Source: an uncultured Desulfobacterales bacterium
GTDB lineage: Bacteria; Desulfobacterota; Desulfobacteria; Desulfobacterales; JAHEIW01
NCBI GenBank assembly: GCA_947259495.1
Contig: CAMYLV010000014.1
Span: 13,761 to 77,760, forward strand
Length of the DNA stretch: 64,000 nt
Direction: 5' to 3'
In this document: one piece after another, positions 25,232-39,336 of the stretch
Numbering within the stretch: the first letter of the stretch is position 1
Layout: the number at the start of each line of letters is the position of its first letter
The notes under the pieces: generated by a model
Told to the model about the DNA's origin: nothing
The model's database searches: none
Seen by the model: only the letters and a program-made list of their open reading frames with translations
Made by a program: the position numbers and the translations under genes

Positions 25232-26971
25232 ATGAGCGGTTTAAGAAAAGCTTTGCTGGCGCTGGCAGCCGTAGCGTTAACCGTGGGTTCCCTCTTGCAC
25301 GCGAATCAGGAGGTTGTTCCCAAAACAGCCACCTGGCAGGATGTGCTGACCGAGGCCAAGCAGGGCGATTACCGGATTATAGACACCGATAAATTATGGG
25401 ATCGCTATAAAAAAGATCCTGGAAAAACCCTTCTTGTGGACACCCGCCAGGAATGGGAATACCGAACCGGACACATCAAGGGCGCCCTCAATTTTCCGAT
25501 CGAGCCGACCTGGTTGTCGCGCTGGCGCAATAAAGGTGCACTGGGAAAATTTTTGGGGCCGGATAAGAATCGTTTCATCGTGTTTTACTGAGCGGGGCTG
25601 GCATGAGTCCGCAGCGACTCGGCGGCCCGGGTGGCCGTGACGCTGGGTTATAAAAACGTCTTGCGTGACCCCATGGGTTATCCGGAATGGCATGCCAGGG
25701 GTCTTCCCGTTGACAGCACCCCGGCCGGGCTTTCTGAGGTATCGCTAACACCCCAACAGTCAAGGCCCCTGCAGGGCTGGGGGATGATCTGGACGCTTCT
25801 GGGCATCTTTGCCGGCGGAATCGCCCTGAACCTGACACCGTGTATCTATCCTTTAATTCCAATTACGGTTTCCTTATTCGGCGGTCAGCGCTCTGAGAGC
25901 CAGCGAAAGCTGATGCTTCACGGGACCTGTTATATCGGCGGACTTGCGCTCACCAACTCGGTGCTCGGGGTGATTGCAGCCCTGACCGGTGGACTGCTGG
26001 GGAGTTTACTGCAACACCCGATGGTGCTCGCTCTGGTGGCTGCCGTCTTGATCTTTTTTGCCACCAGTCTCTTTGGACTCTGGGAAATACGCCTTCCATA
26101 CGCTTTATCAAAGATGGCTTCAAGGACTTACACCGGTTATTTTGGAAGCCTCTTCATGGGCCTGACATTGGGCGTGGTAGCCTCGGCGTGTATCGGCCCG
26201 TTCATTTTGGGATTGCTCACCTGGGTCGCCACCATCGGAAGCATATGGATCGCGTTTTTAATCTTCTTTACCTTGAGCCTCGGCCTGGGCTTACCTCTCT
26301 TTTTTCTGGCCCTGTTTTCCGGACAACTGAACAAACTTCCGCGTTCCGGTGAATGGATGCTGTGGGTCACGAAGCTTTTGGGTTGGATTCTGGTGGGCAT
26401 GGCTGCTTATTTTATTCAGCCGTTGTTACCTGAAACTGCAAAGATTTTCTTACTGGCAGCCGTCGCTTTAGCTGCGGCATTGCACCTGGGCTGGATCGAC
26501 AGGACTCGGGCCGGGTTCCGGGGGTTCGAGTGGCTTAGAACCGCTGCAGCCATCGTAGGCCTGATCATAGCGACTTTTCTTATCGGTTCATGGGTAATGC
26601 GAGGCCCCGGCGTGACCTGGCATCCCTACTCAGAGCAGGTATTGGCGGAAGCACAAAGATTGCAAAAACCGGTCATCATGGATTTCTATGCCGACTGGTG
26701 CGCCCCCTGCCGCGAGCTGGATGAAGTCACGTTTCATGATCCTGAAATCATCAAACAGGCGAAAAGCAATTTTACCATGATTAAGGTTGACTTAACCCGC
26801 AAAGGCAATCCGATTCACGAAAGTTTACTACGGCAATATGGAGTCAAAGGTGTGCCCACAGTTGTGTTTTTAGACCCTCAGGGAAAAGAACAGCGCGATC
26901 TGCGCCTGGTGGATTTTGTGCCCGCCGAACAATTTTTAATCCACATGGCAGAAATTAAGAAAACTCAATAA
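25232..26971 (+). CDS. periplasmic rhodanese - DsbD(CcdA) membrane core - thioredoxin fusion, read through two in-frame UGA codons (candidate Sec at 25589-25591 and 25604-25606)
   Basis: ORFs 25232-25591 and 25631-26971 share one frame. The rhodanese domain spans the gap as FIVFY-TGA-AGLA-TGA-VRSDSAARVAVTLGYKNV...GYPEWHARGLPV. Downstream are LNLTPCIYP, ASACIGP and a C-terminal WCAPC. There is an N-terminal signal peptide. Confidence 0.7.
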
Positions 26972-27427: not shown

Positions 27428-27455
27428 TCCGTCTTTGTTAAAAAGGGGTAAACGT

Positions 27456-28202
27456 ATGGAAATTCAATTTACGACTAAAGACAAAAAATGGATTCAAAAA
27501 ACGATTAGGAAAACATATTCCAAAGCCGCTAAAAACCCTGGTGGCCTGTTTAGATATCCCACGGGCCATGAGGGACTGATGGCTTTAAAATATGATCCTG
27601 AACTCCTGCAGGCGTTACCGGCGGAAGTTGCCGCTTCATATTGCGGCGTGGGCAATCCCTTCACCTTAGGACCCATAAATGCAGGGGATGCTGTGCTGGA
27701 TGTGGGCTGCGGAGCCGGCGTCGACGCGCTTTTTTCAGCGATGCGGACGGGCCCTTCGGGAAAAGTGACGGGGATCGATATAACCCCTGCAATGCTTAAG
27801 CGGGCTCAAAAGAATCTTTCGATGACGGATTTAAAAAATGTCCGCTTTGAGGAAGGATCGGTTGAAAACCTGCCCTTTGCAGATGAAGTCTTTGACGTTG
27901 TAACCTCAAATGGGGCCTTAAACCTTATCCCCGACAAAACCAGGGCCTTTGGTGAGATCTACCGCGTTTTAAAATCAGGTGGACGCCTGATGGTCGCAGA
28001 CGAAATTCTAATCGGTGAATTGCCCACGGAAAAAAATAAAATAATTAAAAGCTGGGCTCAGTGAGAGGGCGGGGCAATACCGGGAAAGGATTTCCTGGCA
28101 ATGCTTCAAAAGGTTGGGTTCAAAACCCCCGAGCTGGTTGCTAAAACGGGATTTAACAGCTCACCCAAAACAGAGGGCGTATTGATTCGTGCGATAAAAT
28201 AG
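27456..28202 (+). CDS. ArsM-like SAM-dependent methyltransferase with an in-frame UGA (candidate Sec at 28062-28064)
   Basis: SYCGVGNPF and VLDVGCGAGVD motifs. Reading through gives ...KSWAQ-U-EGGAIPGKDFLAMLQKVGFKTPELV...-TAG at 28200-28202. In ArsM-type enzymes a Cys sits at this spot (yaGCiaGA...aGF). A hairpin ccgggaaaggauuuccugg lies 17-35 nt after the UGA. Confidence 0.65.
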
Positions 28203-34433: not shown

Positions 34434-35042
34434 CTATTTGGTTTTATTTTCTGCCTTTTTCTTGGCCGTCGTTTTCGAGGCGACTGTTTTTTTGGCAGTC
34501 GGCTTGCTTGCCGCCTTTTTGGCCGCGGGCTTGGTTTCTGCCTTTTTGGCTTTGGGTTTGGCGGCCGCTTTGGCCTCAGGCTTTTGGGCTTCTTTTTTCT
34601 TTACTTCGGCTTTCGGGGTCTCAGCAGCTTTCCCTTCAGCTGTTGCTCTACTCTCCCGGGGCTTCTCTTTTTCGGCGACAGGCTTTTGGGCTTCGCTTTC
34701 AGGTTCGACTTTTTTGCGGGCCTTTACCCCCTTGGCTTTGATGCTGTCGATTTTAACGGCCGTGTATTGCTGGCGATGCCCTTGCTTGCGGCGATAACGC
34801 TTGCGGCGCTTATACTTGAAAACAATAATTTTTTTAGCTTTACCCTGTTCAACAATATGCCCCTCAACCGTCGCATCGGTCAGCACCGGTTGGCCGATAT
34901 TGACATCGGCGCCGTCGGAAATCAACAATACCTGGTCAAACGTCACCGGGCTGCCGATCTCACCTGTAATCTTTTCAACCCTGAGCGTTTCACCTTCTTC
35001 AACTTTATACTGTTTACCGCCTGAAGTCACTACCGCATACAT
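34434..35042 (-). CDS. rplU: 50S ribosomal protein L21 with an about 100-aa Lys/Ala/Glu-rich C-terminal extension
   Basis: MYAVVTSGGKQYKVEEGETL.... AGGAGG lies 8 nt before the ATG at 35042. Confidence 0.9.
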   Translation of the reverse strand: MYAVVTSGGKQYKVEEGETLRVEKITGEIGSPVTFDQVLLISDGADVNIGQPVLTDATVEGHIVEQGKAKKIIVFKYKRRKRYRRKQGHRQQYTAVKIDSIKAKGVKARKKVEPESEAQKPVAEKEKPRESRATAEGKAAETPKAEVKKKEAQKPEAKAAAKPKAKKAETKPAAKKAASKPTAKKTVASKTTAKKKAENKTK

Positions 35043-35132
35043 CGAATTAGCCTCCTTGAAAATAATCCGCTTTTTCACCATTATAAAACTTGGAATAATT
35101 AACCTTTCAGATTAAATTGTCAAGAAAAACTT

Positions 35133-35272: not shown

Positions 35273-35362
35273 GCCCCGTAGGGGCTGATGGGTTTTCGGT
35301 TTCCTGCCTCTCAGAGGAAACCGAAAAATAAAAAACGCTCTGCGCCCTCTGCGCCCTCTGCG
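35273..35362. repeat. R4 element, single arm
   Basis: gccccgtaggggc plus the hairpin ttttcggtttcc-tgcctctcag-aggaaaccgaaaa plus ctctgcgccctctgcgccctctgcg. Confidence 0.7.
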
Positions 35363-35401
35363 TCTCGAGCGACCGAAGGGAGCGGGTGTGATAAAGAATG
35401 A

Positions 35402-36655
35402 TCAGTTACGGCGCGAATCGGAAGAGCCATCGCAGTTGGGGCAACAATCGGACACCACCGGCAGCGGTTCAGCCAGCGTTTTTTCAGTCTCAGATATGGT
35501 CTCTTCCTGCTTTGGTGCCGGTTTGAAGCGCGCCCACAGCGCATTCCAGATGGGTTTAACCGACATCGCCAGAATCATCAGCGCACCGATCACCCCCACC
35601 CAATGCGGCACAATTTCTGAAGCCTGGCCCACTACTGCCTGGGCCGATATCCCTAACGATGCATATACCTGATCAACGATTAAACCAAAACCAACGGCAC
35701 AGACCGCAATGGATGCCAGGTAGATGGCGGTGGCCCGCTTGCCCAGCACACCGGTCAAGACCGTTAAGGAGGCGATATTGGTGGCCGGCCCGGCTAAAAG
35801 GAAAACCAGAGCTGCACCGGGGCTGACGCCTTTAAGAATCAGGGCCGCGGCAATGGGTGTTGAGGCCGTTGCACAAATATATAATGGGATACCGACCGCC
35901 AGCATGATCAGCATGGCCGGAAGACCGGAGCCCAGATATTTACCGAACATATCCGGCGGGATCAGCACTGTAATCAACCCGGCCAATATCATTCCAATCA
36001 TAAACCAGCCAGCCAGATCATCCCAGAGATCATCGACGGCGAAGCGCATACCGGCGGCAAGCTTCTCCCCAAAGGTGTGATGCCGGCGATGCTCTTCAGG
36101 CGAACAGTTTTCTCCGTCGCAGCAGCCATCCACCGGGCAGTTCAGATCCGGGGTGATGCGGGTCGTTTCGCTTTTCGGACCCAAAAGGTTTTCGGTAATG
36201 CCGGCAACCGCCGCGGTAATAAAAGCCACCACCGGACGCGCGACGGTCATGATGGGATCCAAAAGGGCATAGGTGATCGAAATGGAATCCACCCCGGATT
36301 CGGGGGTTGAAATCAAAAATGCGGTGGTGGCGCCATTGTTGGCGCCCTGTTTGCGCAGCGACACGGCTGCGGGCAGCACGCCGCATGATCACAACGGAAT
36401 CGGAATGCCAAAAAAAGCGGATTTCAGGACGGATTTAAAGCGACCCTGTCCCAGGTGTTTGGCAATCGAACTGGGATTTAAAAAAACCCGCAAAAGCCCG
36501 GCCACCAACAACCCGAACAAAATGTAAACCGAAGCGTCAACCAGTAAATCCCATGTAGCCAGTAAAATATCGATAATAAAATTCAAGTTCTTATACCTTT
36601 TTATGTAATCAAAACACTTTGCGCTATGCTCTATTTCCCGCGGAGAACACAGCAT
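35402..36655 (-). CDS. SO_0444/COG0701-type metal(loid) permease with an in-frame UGA (candidate Sec at 36389-36391)
   Basis: ORFs 36389-36655 and 35402-36379 share one frame. Read-through gives FGIPIPL-U-SCGVLPAAVSLRKQGANNGATTAFLISTPESGVDSI, where family members have PLCSCG. Cys/His-rich loops are present (CPVDGCCDGENC, CCPNCDG). A hairpin cgcagccgugucgcugcg lies about 18-35 nt after the UGA. Confidence 0.7.
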
Positions 36656-36687
36656 ATCGGAAAAAGGCCTGTTTAGGCATCGAAAAA

Positions 36688-37062
36688 TTACTCTGAGACG
36701 TGCTCCAGCCCTACATTCAACAACTCCGCCACGTGCTCATCATCCAGCGAATAATAGATCACCTGACCGTCGCGGCGGCTTTTGACCAGGGCCAGATCGC
36801 GGAAGCGCCGTAATTGGTGTGACACAGCCGACTCGGTCAGCCCTAAAAATGCAGCCAGGTCACAGACGCACATTTCCACATTTTTGAGCGCCATAACGAT
36901 TTTCAGACGGCTGGGATCACCCAGGATCTTATAAATCGAGGACAGACGTTCAATTTCTTTCGCTGATACGGTTTCCCTGCGCGCCTGCTCGACGCGGTCC
37001 AGATGGATCACGCGAACCTGGCAGTCATCCCCGTCTAAACATTTGGCTTTTGCAGATCCCAT
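36688..37062 (-). CDS. ArsR/SmtB-family metalloregulator
   Basis: LGDPSRLKIVMALKNVEMCVCDLAAFLGLTESAVSHQLRRF. AGGAG lies 6 nt before the ATG at 37062. Confidence 0.9.
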   Translation of the reverse strand: MGSAKAKCLDGDDCQVRVIHLDRVEQARRETVSAKEIERLSSIYKILGDPSRLKIVMALKNVEMCVCDLAAFLGLTESAVSHQLRRFRDLALVKSRRDGQVIYYSLDDEHVAELLNVGLEHVSE

Positions 37063-37072
37063 TTCCACTCCT

Positions 37073-37094
37073 TGAATATATGAACATATATTCA
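37073..37094. promoter_or_regulatory. candidate ArsR operator
   Basis: A perfect 9-4-9 palindrome, TGAATATAT-gaac-ATATATTCA, lies immediately upstream of the RBS. Confidence 0.55.
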
Positions 37095-37429
37095 TTTAAC
37101 CTTTCTATACACGTTTGTCAAGCCTTAACGATCCGTAATGGGTTTCTATGTTCTTAAAACTTTCGAAAAGGGAAAAAGTAGCTGTTCACACTGAAAGCGA
37201 GGCCAATAAACTTCTTAACCACATAGAAATATACATAAAAATTTCCAGACAAAATCTTTGCTCAAATCTTCGGTTTATCATTGATTTCCCCCATCCAACG
37301 TGTTATTGCCTCGCCAACCATTTCACCTCTCAGGTAGATTCTCGACTCTGATTTTTAATCCAGCCATACAAAAATGGTAATCAACTAAAATTTATAGTGA
37401 TTATAGTGGTTTTCTTATAAAACAAGCAC

Positions 37430-38656
37430 ATGGGATCTGAATCTTACGTACTGATCATCGGTTATATTTTCGGGTTTTATATGGCCTGGAATATTGGCGC
37501 CAATGACGTGGCCAATTCAATGGCATCAGCAGTTGGCGCCAAAGCCATCACCATTCGTCAGGCCATATTTATTGCCGGTATTTTAAATATTGTCGGCGCT
37601 GTTTTTATCGGCTCACATGTCACCAAAACCATCCGTAAAGGCATTGTCTCAACAGACATCCTTGCTGATCCTCATCTGGCGCTGATTGGCGCTCTATCCG
37701 CCCTTTTGGCTGCCGCTTTGTGGGTGTCTTTTGCGACCTGGAAATCACTGCCGGTGTCCACAACCCATTCAATTGTGGGCGCGATGATCGGTTTTGGTAT
37801 CATGGCCGGTGGATTTTCGGTAATCAACTGGGGCAAACTCGGTGCGGTCATATTGAGCTGGGTGATTTCTCCGGTTTTTGCCATGGTCATCGCCTTTTTG
37901 ATGTTTAAAACCATCGTCAAATTTATTTTGTCCAAAGAGGATCCTTTCGCCCAAGCCCTTAAGCTGGCGCCTTATTTCATCAGCATCGCTCTTTTTGTTG
38001 TGATCTTATCTTTTTTATTCAAGACACCGCTCGGCAAGAGGCTGGCGATCGGAACACCCCTCGCGCTTCTGGTTGCCCTGGTCTTGGCGCTCGTACTGGG
38101 ATTCGTGGCTGTCAAAATCTTGCGCAAATATATAAAAAAGAGGAATCAGAGCGGGGAAGAAGAGGTCTTTCGCAAAATTCAGATCGGCACTTCCTGCTAC
38201 GTGGCCTTAGCCCAGGGTGCCAACGACGTGGCCAATGCCATCGGACCGCTGGCGGTCATTTATTTTCTGGTTAAAACCGGCAGCGTGGGGACCAAGGTCC
38301 CGGTCCCGATTTTTCTGCTTTTTTTCGGTGGCATTGGTATTGCCTGCGGCATTGGCATGGCCGGACACCGCGTAATGGACACCATTGGCAAAAAAATTAC
38401 CACCCTGACCAATACCCGCGGTTTTTCGGTGGATTTTGCCGCCGCCACAACCGTGATGGTAGCGTCTAAAATGGGGTTGCCGGTGTCAACCACCCATGCG
38501 GCCGTGGGTGGTGTCATGGGAGTCGGCCTAGCACGCGGGATCGAGGCCGTTAATTTTAGAATTATATTTGAAATTATCCTGTACTGGGTTTTAACCGTAC
38601 CGGCTGCAGCCATCACCAGCATCGTAATTTTTAAAATCCTTCAGCTCTTTATCTAA
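37430..38656 (+). CDS. pit: PiT-family inorganic phosphate transporter
   Basis: Duplicated GANDVAN(S/A) motifs, about 10 TM helices. Confidence 0.9.
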   Translation: MGSESYVLIIGYIFGFYMAWNIGANDVANSMASAVGAKAITIRQAIFIAGILNIVGAVFIGSHVTKTIRKGIVSTDILADPHLALIGALSALLAAALWVSFATWKSLPVSTTHSIVGAMIGFGIMAGGFSVINWGKLGAVILSWVISPVFAMVIAFLMFKTIVKFILSKEDPFAQALKLAPYFISIALFVVILSFLFKTPLGKRLAIGTPLALLVALVLALVLGFVAVKILRKYIKKRNQSGEEEVFRKIQIGTSCYVALAQGANDVANAIGPLAVIYFLVKTGSVGTKVPVPIFLLFFGGIGIACGIGMAGHRVMDTIGKKITTLTNTRGFSVDFAAATTVMVASKMGLPVSTTHAAVGGVMGVGLARGIEAVNFRIIFEIILYWVLTVPAAAITSIVIFKILQLFI

Positions 38657-38667
38657 AGGAGAAAGTT

Positions 38668-39336
38668 ATGCGCATACCCTTTATTTCAATGTTTGTCACC
38701 TCGCCCTTTGATGGCGTGCAGGAACATGCCGAAATGGTGAAAGAATGCGCCTGGGTTTTTCAAAGGGCCATCGAGTGTATCATCGAAGATAGATGCGAAG
38801 ACTTTGAACATTTTAGAAAAGATATCGATAAGCTCGAAAGCGAAGCCGATGCTGTCAAGCGCCGTATCCGGGGACATCTGCCCAAGGGCACCCTGCTGCC
38901 GGTGGATAAGTTCGAGCTGTTCCGATATTTAAGAGAACAGGACAAAGTGATAGATGCCGTGGAAGAGGGCCTTGACTGGTTGTCTTTCCGGGCCGCTGCC
39001 GGCATTCCGGAAGTACTCGAAAAAGATTTTATGATTCTGGTGGAAGCGGTCACGGATCCCATCGAAGAGTTGAGCAAAATGGTGGCCGAAGCCCGTAAAT
39101 ACTTTTCAAATTTTGCAGAGGAGCAGCGGATTGTGGTTAAAGATATGATTCGCACCCTGCGTCAGCATGAACACGAAGCAGATAAACTCGAAGATACCGT
39201 CAAAGAAAAAATCTTTAACGCGATAGAGGACCCTGTGGCCGTATATCATTTAATCCGCTTAACGGAAATTATCGGTTCCATCGCCGATCACGCCGAAAAT
39301 GCCGGCGACATGATGCGGGCCATGATTGCCAAATAG
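38668..39336 (+). CDS. DUF47 / TIGR00153 PhoU-like phosphate-transport regulator
   Basis: The typical PiT partner, helical, with HE.EADK... and ..IADHAENAGD. Confidence 0.8.
   Translation: MRIPFISMFVTSPFDGVQEHAEMVKECAWVFQRAIECIIEDRCEDFEHFRKDIDKLESEADAVKRRIRGHLPKGTLLPVDKFELFRYLREQDKVIDAVEEGLDWLSFRAAAGIPEVLEKDFMILVEAVTDPIEELSKMVAEARKYFSNFAEEQRIVVKDMIRTLRQHEHEADKLEDTVKEKIFNAIEDPVAVYHLIRLTEIIGSIADHAENAGDMMRAMIAK

Follow-up and report, generated by a model that had tools for sequence, protein, structure and literature searches.

Does a UGA codon that divides an apparent transporter gene into two open reading frames (ORFs) end translation, or does it specify selenocysteine (Sec) at the metal-binding site of one longer protein? 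The question is raised by a locus on the reverse strand of a 64,000-nucleotide (nt) stretch of DNA, hereafter called the window, from an uncultured Desulfobacterales bacterium (GenBank assembly GCA_947259495.1, contig CAMYLV010000014.1, positions 13,761 to 77,760). An initial annotation, prepared from the sequence, had read ORFs 36389-36655 and 35402-36379 as a single gene for a COG0701/SO_0444-like permease in which UGA takes the place of the first cysteine of a PLCSCG motif, and had placed this gene with an ArsR regulator under a palindromic operator. Judging from the comparative sequence data described below, the UGA almost certainly encodes Sec, located where an efflux pump of the copper/zinc type binds its metal. 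We also consider it highly probable that the locus is a two-gene metal-resistance operon, in which an arsR/smtB-like repressor gene is followed by the gene for a genuine selenoprotein permease of the SO_0444 family (NF033936, ArsP_1 fold).

One frame with a single internal UGA

The elements of the permease gene are as follows, with positions numbered along the window.

35402..36586, reverse strand: predicted gene for an SO_0444-family (ArsP_1 fold) metal efflux permease, a selenoprotein of 394 amino acids (aa) with Sec at residue 66 (Sec66); start TTG 36586, stop TGA 35404-35402
36389..36391, reverse strand: predicted Sec66 UGA codon, which substitutes for the first Cys of P-L-C-S-C-G-V-L-P
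36596..36599, reverse strand: putative ribosome-binding site (RBS) of the permease, AAGG, 9 nt 5' of the TTG start, read from the sequence; AAGGA or GGAGG occupies the equivalent spot in relatives

The two ORFs form one frame of 418 codons whose sole interruption is the TGA at 36391..36389, and reading through it gives ...FGIPIPL-U-SCGVLPAAVSLRKQGANNGATTAFLISTPESGVDSI, the same product that the initial annotation had written out. That annotation had also remarked that the downstream ORF is called from a GTG without a plausible RBS; this GTG proves to be the Val codon of the conserved GVLP, and no RBS precedes it. In agreement with the family first proposed, the read-through product scores 425.4 bits against NF033936, the NCBIfam equivalog model for SO_0444 family Cu/Zn efflux transporters (curated cut-off 300 bits), in a match that covers profile positions 1-349 of 351 and crosses the UGA.

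Homologues were gathered from the nearest 60 genomes and from 80 further loci in public genomes, and 110 related loci were tallied; a separate sample comprised 401 genomes drawn evenly from the phylum. The Sec66 codon is TGA in 54 of the 110 loci, and TGC or TGT in the other 56, where the gene is continuous and not split in two. The 54 TGA loci were assembled independently and span 60-100% protein identity. Within the set of the nearest 60 genomes, this codon reads TGA in 23, which represent at least four genera, and TGC or TGT in seven. The evenly drawn sample holds a homologue in 86 of its 401 genomes, and in 13 of these 86 the motif reads U-S-C. Purifying selection is evident on both sides of the UGA codon. 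On its 5' side, the first and second codon positions are conserved and the third is free among 41 distinct Sec-form sequences, which indicates that the N-terminal 65 residues are translated within a constrained protein.

The genome, which is 97% complete in 69 contigs, carries the apparatus that Sec decoding would use. A tRNA-Sec gene was found at 75 bits and confirmed by ARAGORN with anticodon TCA, and SelB (358 bits), SelA (615 bits) and SelD (359 bits) are all encoded, the SelD gene itself with one TGA; all four components exceed their curated cut-offs. The checks that had been proposed with the initial annotation, which concerned Cys orthologues, Sec machinery and a SECIS-like hairpin (SECIS: selenocysteine insertion sequence) retained together with the TGA in Sec-form orthologues, all came out in favour of its reading.

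The ATG at position 36655, at the 5' end of the upstream ORF, was rejected as the start codon. It is probably not the start, because TTG 36586 and its RBS are conserved and the frame upstream is closed in relatives, most of the close ones having in-frame stops 1-6 codons 5' of the TTG. Cys-form homologues start MNFI... exactly at the position of this TTG, which we take to be the probable start of the permease. TTG is used in 36 of 43 distinct Sec-form genes, all 36 from the clade of the window, versus 1 of 52 distinct Cys-form genes, of which 41 start with ATG. This 36-member, all-Sec clade has TTG throughout and has retained it over 66-100% protein identity (window 36584-36586; loci L024-L083), which probably reflects one inherited event; the weak start might be tuned to slow Sec decoding.

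Public entries for the clade are mostly 320-325-aa fragments that begin at the GTG after the UGA (protein hits P0003-P0109), and they are labelled 'SO_0444 family Cu/Zn efflux transporter' or 'YraQ (UPF0718)'. Sec forms are therefore systematically misannotated in records of metagenome-assembled genomes (MAGs) and metagenomes, where the fragments conceal the first pair of helices and one half of the metal-binding motif. For the window, annotation should replace the two called ORFs by a single gene for a 394-aa selenoprotein with Sec66.

A hairpin conserved in the UGA forms

Two RNA elements downstream of the UGA are relevant.

36354..36371, reverse strand: predicted apical SECIS hairpin, stem CGCAGC/GCUGCG, loop CGUGUC, from synonymous invariance, pairing and RNAalifold
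36341..36382, reverse strand: possible full two-tier SECIS, tentative, from RNAalifold; lower stem formed by nt 10-17 with nt 44-51 after the U of the UGA

The initial annotation had pointed to a hairpin after the UGA with a loop containing GUGU, and this element holds up: a 6-bp stem begins 17 nt after the A of the UGA, and its loop, CGUGUC, begins 23 nt after the UGA. For orientation, bSECISearch works with a UGA-to-loop range of 16-37 nt and a small apical loop that contains G. The SelD and methyltransferase selenoprotein genes of the same genome have G-containing apical hairpins at a spacing similar to that of the permease. Given that the minimum free energy of the single-sequence fold is indistinguishable from that of shuffled sequences (z = -0.79), comparative analysis was needed. 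An Rfam scan of 35300-37200 returned nothing SECIS-like, its one match, to sR30, being at chance level (E 6.9).

In the 41 distinct Sec-form sequences, third-position entropy falls to 0-0.28 bits at codons +7 to +11 and +13 after the UGA, compared with 1.2-1.8 bits at most other fully degenerate codons of the same set; the figure for codons +7 to +11 in 53 Cys forms is about 1.9 bits. All Cys forms but one, in which a relic survives, are devoid of the hairpin. The hairpin has thus dictated a change of amino acid at codon +12: of 41 Sec forms, 40 have Arg there, encoded by a CGN codon that closes the stem, whereas Lys occupies this position in 51 of 53 Cys forms. Pairing in the apical stem is intact in 98.1% of cells of the alignment, versus 3-69% when the partners are slid, with C-G, U-G and U-A pairs at the base and A-U and G-U pairs inside. 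The RNAalifold consensus likewise selects CGCAGC/GCUGCG as the apical stem.

The structure below this hairpin is more difficult to assign. The candidate lower stem (nt 10-17 with 44-51) is paired in 96.2% of cells versus 22-64% when slid, and one of its pairs changes from C-G to U-A in eight sequences. A competing 8-bp stem joins nt 6-13 with nt 32-39 and shows G-C/C-G covariation at one pair; it was not adopted, as it does not account for the invariance at nt 22-31 and is in competition with the apical hairpin. A 7-bp hairpin located 43 nt after the UGA, GGCGCCA-ACAA-UGGCGCC, was rejected because its synonymous sites vary freely.

Other genes with in-frame UGA codons were observed in the genome, namely a TsoB-like gene (two UGA codons), a methyltransferase gene (one) and the SelD gene (one), located at window 25232-26971 and 27435-28202 on the forward strand and at L018:1474-2625.

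Regulator, operator and operon

The gene upstream of the permease and its control elements are listed here.

36688..37062, reverse strand: predicted ArsR/SmtB-family metalloregulator, 124 aa, ATG 37062 (NF033788 94.2 bits, cut-off 55; PF01022 54 bits)
37075..37100, reverse strand: putative operator in the conserved register, TAAATGAATA-TA-TGTTCATATA, 12-2-12 type with core TGAAYA-NN-TGTTCA, between the -35 hexamer and the RBS
37073..37094, reverse strand: palindrome related to that of the initial annotation, TGAATATATG-TT-CATATATTCA, perfect 10-2-10, directly 5' of the AAGGAG RBS
37116..37121, reverse strand: putative -35 hexamer TTGACA of the arsR-permease promoter, conserved at this spacing in most related loci
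35320..35361, reverse strand: terminator-like element, a G+C-rich repeat or stem with a T-run after it, 40 nt past the permease stop, from a terminator scan and the sequence

The pairing of the permease with an ArsR-type regulator, as noted from the start, recurs widely: the two genes adjoin in 78 of the 110 loci. The regulator has candidate ligands of the alpha3N type (C14, H20 and C65-V-C67) and of the alpha5 type (D108, H110, H121 and E124), and its D108-x-H110 ... H121-x2-E124 pattern aligns with the alpha5 ligands of SmtB (DHH...H..E). Its best solved relatives are SmtB (1r1t, E 9e-21), CzrA, CadC and NmtR. Residues C14, H20, C65, C67, D108, H110 and H121 are kept in 62-65 of 65 distinct cognate regulators, a tabulation that does not include E124, and this conservation holds whether the neighbouring permease has Sec or Cys. 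The initial annotation had called the regulator ArsR; its family is ArsR/SmtB, and the ligand set and operator type suggest a sensor of the SmtB/CadC kind for Zn, Cd or Pb, not one for arsenic. The TGAACA-NN-TGTTCA operator, with its 6-2-6 core, is one that we take to be typical of SmtB/CzrA-type Zn sensors.

The placement of an operator here, as first described, is supported, though about another dyad axis. Its 9-4-9 palindrome is real and lies within the perfect 10-2-10 repeat at 37073-37094, but the register conserved in the family is of the 12-2-12 type, and the 10-2-10 repeat overlaps it with an offset of 4 nt towards the RBS. The 10-2-10 repeat is perfect here and in three loci of the same genus (L025, L033 and L035), has one or two mismatches in most others of the genus, and is lost in more distant relatives, which retain the 12-2-12 register. 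Most of the 65 distinct upstream regions share one layout, which consists of TTGACA, about 17 nt, TATATGAAYA-NN-TGTTCATATA, an RBS and the start codon. In several loci the dyad is a perfect 12-2-12 or 14-0-14 repeat, and its distance to TTGACA and to the RBS is constant in most.

The terminator-like element past the permease stop is likely the end of the operon, and therefore the two genes appear to form one unit. A short tandem repeat, GCAGAGGGC-GCAGAGGGC-GCAGAGCG, stands immediately 5' of the T-run (35336-35361, reverse strand).

Permease family and putative metal site

Two further segments of the permease stand out in an alignment of 35 homologues.

36077..36139, reverse strand: Cys/His-rich loop CPVDGCCDGENCSPEEHRRHH, residues 150-170, between the permease halves
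35873..35875, reverse strand: Cys238 in P-L-Y-I-C-A-T-A-S-T-P, invariant, the second-half counterpart of the USC motif

The permease matches Pfam PF03773 (ArsP_1) at 149 bits. Membership in the SaoE family (NF040736) was considered and rejected, given a score of 194.7 bits against a cut-off of 325. The segment P-L-U-S-C-G-V-L-P fits the ArsP-type pattern PxCSCxxxP with U in place of the first C, which yields the pair Sec66 and Cys68. In ArsP, the cysteine pair of this motif is reportedly needed for transport. The CSC/USC motif, the P-L-Y-I-C238-A-T-A-S-T-P segment and the Cys/His-rich loop are invariant in the 35 homologues. The invariant loop residues are C150, D153, C155, C156, C161, H166, H169 and H170, in the pattern C150-x2-D-x-C-C-x4-C-x4-H-x2-H-H; the loop is disordered in an AlphaFold2 model, and it is a probable cytoplasmic metal-binding segment.

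In the same model, U66 and C238 each occupy a loop that follows an unwound stretch and lies just before a short helix (residues 67-79 and 239-251), which suggests that two symmetry-related broken helices meet in the membrane. A Foldseek search of the model against the PDB found nothing below E 0.06, with TM-scores of at most 0.29 and weak top matches to MFS, DASS and TRAP transporters. Since neither sequence nor fold comparison identified a matching solved structure, we infer the geometry of the Sec66 site from the model and the alignment.

A paralogue on another contig of the genome (C16), with 31% identity, has no PxCSC motif.

Proposed mechanism

We propose that, in the absence of metal, an SmtB/CadC-like dimer would sit on the 12-2-12-type operator, where it would cover the -10 region and the transcription start and repress the operon. 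A thiophilic divalent metal, most likely Zn, Cd or Pb and possibly Cu, would bind the Cys-rich alpha3N site, the Asp/His alpha5 site or both, and the metal-bound repressor would leave the DNA. Ribosomes would then initiate at the conserved weak TTG codon. At UGA66, SelB carrying Sec-tRNA(Sec) would bind to the hairpin 17 nt downstream, such that Sec is inserted and termination avoided. Sec66 and Cys68, at the start of the short helix in the first half, together with probably Cys238 in the second half, could form a mid-membrane export site for soft metals. A selenolate has a lower pKa than a thiolate and is softer and faster-exchanging, and it would let the pump bind thiophilic metals more tightly or turn them over faster. 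The substrate, the arrangement of its binding site and the kinetic benefit of Sec are presumptions in this scheme.

The experiments that bear on the substrate all concern Cys-form homologues. In Shewanella oneidensis, SO_0444 is needed under ZnSO4 and CuCl2 stress, as confirmed by complementation (PMC3219624), and in Nitratiruptor, Cd and Cu are strong inducers of a homologue (PMC10092412).

Alternative explanations

Several observations weigh against the interpretation offered here. We infer both read-through of the UGA and selenium incorporation into the permease itself, and our view of substrate specificity is taken by analogy from a distant Cys-form homologue under a MerR-type, not an ArsR-type, regulator. 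The covariation score of the apical stem was reached by 130 of 500 shuffles and is not significant; because this stem barely varies and covariation support is weak, the case for the hairpin rests on synonymous-site invariance. For the lower part of the SECIS there are two incompatible models, each with one covarying pair. The -10 element (TTAAAT or TAAATG) is weak and abuts or overlaps the operator, and the promoter was missed by a consensus scan. Finally, the AlphaFold2 model is of moderate confidence only (mean predicted local distance difference test score 66.8, predicted template modelling score 0.63), and a PDB sequence search with the permease gave no match.

The internal UGA could have origins other than Sec coding. 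If the TGA were a nonsense mutation, or an assembly or sequencing error, in a Cys-form permease, the gene would be a pseudogene or its codon really TGC; TGC is one nucleotide change away from TGA, and the genome is a draft in 69 contigs. Yet the same codon is TGA in all 54 of the independently assembled loci, diverged as far as 60% protein identity, selection is purifying on either side of it, and the hairpin is frozen at synonymous sites only in TGA forms. These comparative data effectively refute an explanation whose probability we regard as negligible. Hardly more credible, and in our view very improbable, is the UGA as a real stop, in which case a 65-aa N-terminal peptide would be followed by re-initiation at the GTG three codons on, giving a separate 325-aa protein. 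Many public entries of ~320-325 aa do begin at that GTG, and a certain amount of terminated product is to be expected, given that Sec decoding never reaches full efficiency. However, those fragment entries are automatic calls, no RBS lies 5' of the GTG, which encodes the Val of the invariant GVLP, and Cys-form homologues are single continuous proteins; the split would also sever the conserved PxCSCxxxP motif and leave the constraint on the hairpin unexplained.

Should the permease be a selenoprotein, as we favour, its substrate might still be a metalloid or an organometal, such as methylarsenite as for ArsP, Hg or a Se species, instead of Zn, Cu or Cd. We judge this unlikely. The Pfam family is ArsP_1, PXCSCXXXP is the motif that defines ArsP orthologues (PMC5552862), selenols bind As(III) and Hg very tightly, and a recent review places transporter selenoproteins under heavy metal/metalloid resistance (PMC13188914). 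Moreover, the SmtB-type regulator of Thermus thermophilus is reported to respond to arsenic (PMC8649762). On the other side, the permease passes the equivalog cut-off of NF033936 but fails that of the sister family SaoE (195 versus 325 bits), and no ars genes are adjacent to it, judging from translations of the neighbouring ORFs. The regulator combines a complete alpha5 Zn-type site with a CadC/SmtB-like alpha3N site, the operator has the TGAACA-NN-TGTTCA form that we associate with Zn sensors, and the Cys/His-rich loop of the permease is invariant.

Relationship to known systems

The Sec form of this family has been described previously. A preprint by Haft (2022; 10.1101/2022.07.06.499078) reports that the CSC motif of the SO_0444 family is occasionally replaced and that USC forms occur, with WP_014809615.1 of Desulfomonile tiedjei as an example. 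The same source states that the selenoprotein reference set of the NCBI annotation pipeline includes two transporter families, of which this is one, and it reports no selenoproteins in the SaoE family. The 2026 review PMC13188914 includes 'SO_0444 family Cu/Zn efflux transporter, NF033936, UxC' among prokaryotic selenoprotein families. Given that the Sec form is already catalogued, the gene call is correct but ordinary, and is not a discovery. The initial annotation had stressed the rarity of Sec in a transporter; the family is indeed one of very few transporter families with Sec at the substrate site, where selenium would serve ligand binding or exchange and not redox catalysis, but the USC form had already been published and curated.

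The gene examined here resembles the known USC members in that it passes the same NF033936 model, has Sec at the same position (the first Cys of CSC), comes from the same phylum, Thermodesulfobacteriota, and is shortened in the same way by automatic gene callers. It differs in belonging to another lineage, an uncultured Desulfobacterales genus, and in that a separate SECIS design, an unvarying TTG start and the Lys-to-Arg change imposed by the hairpin mark its clade. Neither the preprint nor the review presents an analysis of SECIS elements, regulators or operators for the SO_0444 family.

SO_0444 of S. oneidensis MR-1, the Cys-form founder of the family, is a homologous full-length permease with a CSC motif, encoded in an operon with a gene for a metal-responsive regulator. 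In that system Cys is combined with a ZntR-like (MerR-family) regulator, whereas here Sec is combined with an ArsR/SmtB-family regulator, and the Cu/Zn phenotype that was demonstrated there is presumed for the permease of the window. Campylobacter jejuni ArsP, which PMC6205960 and PMC5552862, citing Chen et al. (2015), describe as an efflux permease for methylarsenite and roxarsone, has PF03773 and PXCSCXXXP in common with the permease here. ArsP, however, is part of an ars operon and exports trivalent organoarsenicals, whereas the gene here lies outside any ars context, falls in the SO_0444 subfamily, and has the extra Cys/His loop and Sec. The sister efflux family encoded at the SAO locus, SaoE (NF040736), has the CSC motif and the fold in common with the permease, and differs in the score of 195 versus 325 noted above.

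The closest solved counterparts of the regulator are SmtB of Synechococcus, CzrA of Staphylococcus aureus and CadC of pI258, which are Zn, Cd and Pb sensors (E 9e-21 to 3e-16). It keeps the alpha5 DxH...HxxE ligands, and has an alpha3 CVC and N-terminal Cys as in CadC; its operator, like theirs, is an imperfect 12-2-12 inverted repeat that overlaps the promoter. The targets are different: those of SmtB, CzrA and CadC are a metallothionein, a CDF transporter or a P-type ATPase, and here the target would be an ArsP-fold selenoprotein permease.

Apparent exchange of selenocysteine and cysteine across the family

At least four hairpin designs occur in the same coding stretch of the family: CGCAGC-CGUGUC-GCUGCG, GUGCUGCC-GGC-GGCAGCAU, CCCGC-AGUU-GCGGG and CCAC-AGGU-GUGG. 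One further USC form has GCCGCAG-GUC-UGCGGC. Hairpins that differ from that of the window are found in more distant USC loci (L087, L098, L119, L134, L149, L153, L157, L160, L165-L168, L170, L172, L173 and L176), and the amino acids of distant USC forms shift to suit their hairpins (AAAS, AVAG, TGVA). Self-complementarity is inherent in the sequence CUG-CCG-GCG-GCA.

A maximum-likelihood tree of 128 distinct proteins requires at least nine changes between Sec and Cys, and at least four of these are forced by well-supported branches. A tree that unites all Sec forms is rejected (approximately unbiased test, p about 1e-49), although the trait itself served to define this group, which was named only once the tree was in view. 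One locus from a Desulfobia sp. MAG (L084:2501-3643) encodes a Cys form (TGT) and yet has a near-intact hairpin of the window type, GCAGCUGUGUCGCUGC, together with Arg at +12. It is a close sister of a Sec-form locus, L114, with 100% support in the Shimodaira-Hasegawa-like approximate likelihood-ratio test, and is likely a recent reversal from Sec to Cys that carries a fossil SECIS.

These data hint that the ~15 codons after Sec (S-C-G-V-L-P-A-A-x-x-L) have hosted several independently evolved SECIS hairpins along with repeated exchange of Sec and Cys, a proposal to which we give slightly less than even weight. If true, the family would be a natural series for how a SECIS arises inside coding sequence, and it would also address why selenium is selected at a non-catalytic binding site. 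As it includes sister pairs of Sec and Cys forms, more than one SECIS design and an SmtB-like repressor with its matching operator, the comparative set provides constructs for testing the effect of Sec on metal selectivity.

Neighbouring genes

Divergent from the arsR promoter, window 37430-39336 (forward strand) holds two ORFs, presumably a 408-aa multi-pass transporter resembling PiT-type phosphate transporters followed by a 222-aa PhoU/DUF47-like protein. The other flank, from translations, presumably encodes ribosomal proteins L21 and L27 and Obg. The ORF that we take to be L21-like, 34434-35081 on the reverse strand (MYAVVTSGGKQYKVEEG...), has a Lys/Ala-rich C-terminal extension of ~100 residues; the usual L21 is ~100 aa in length.

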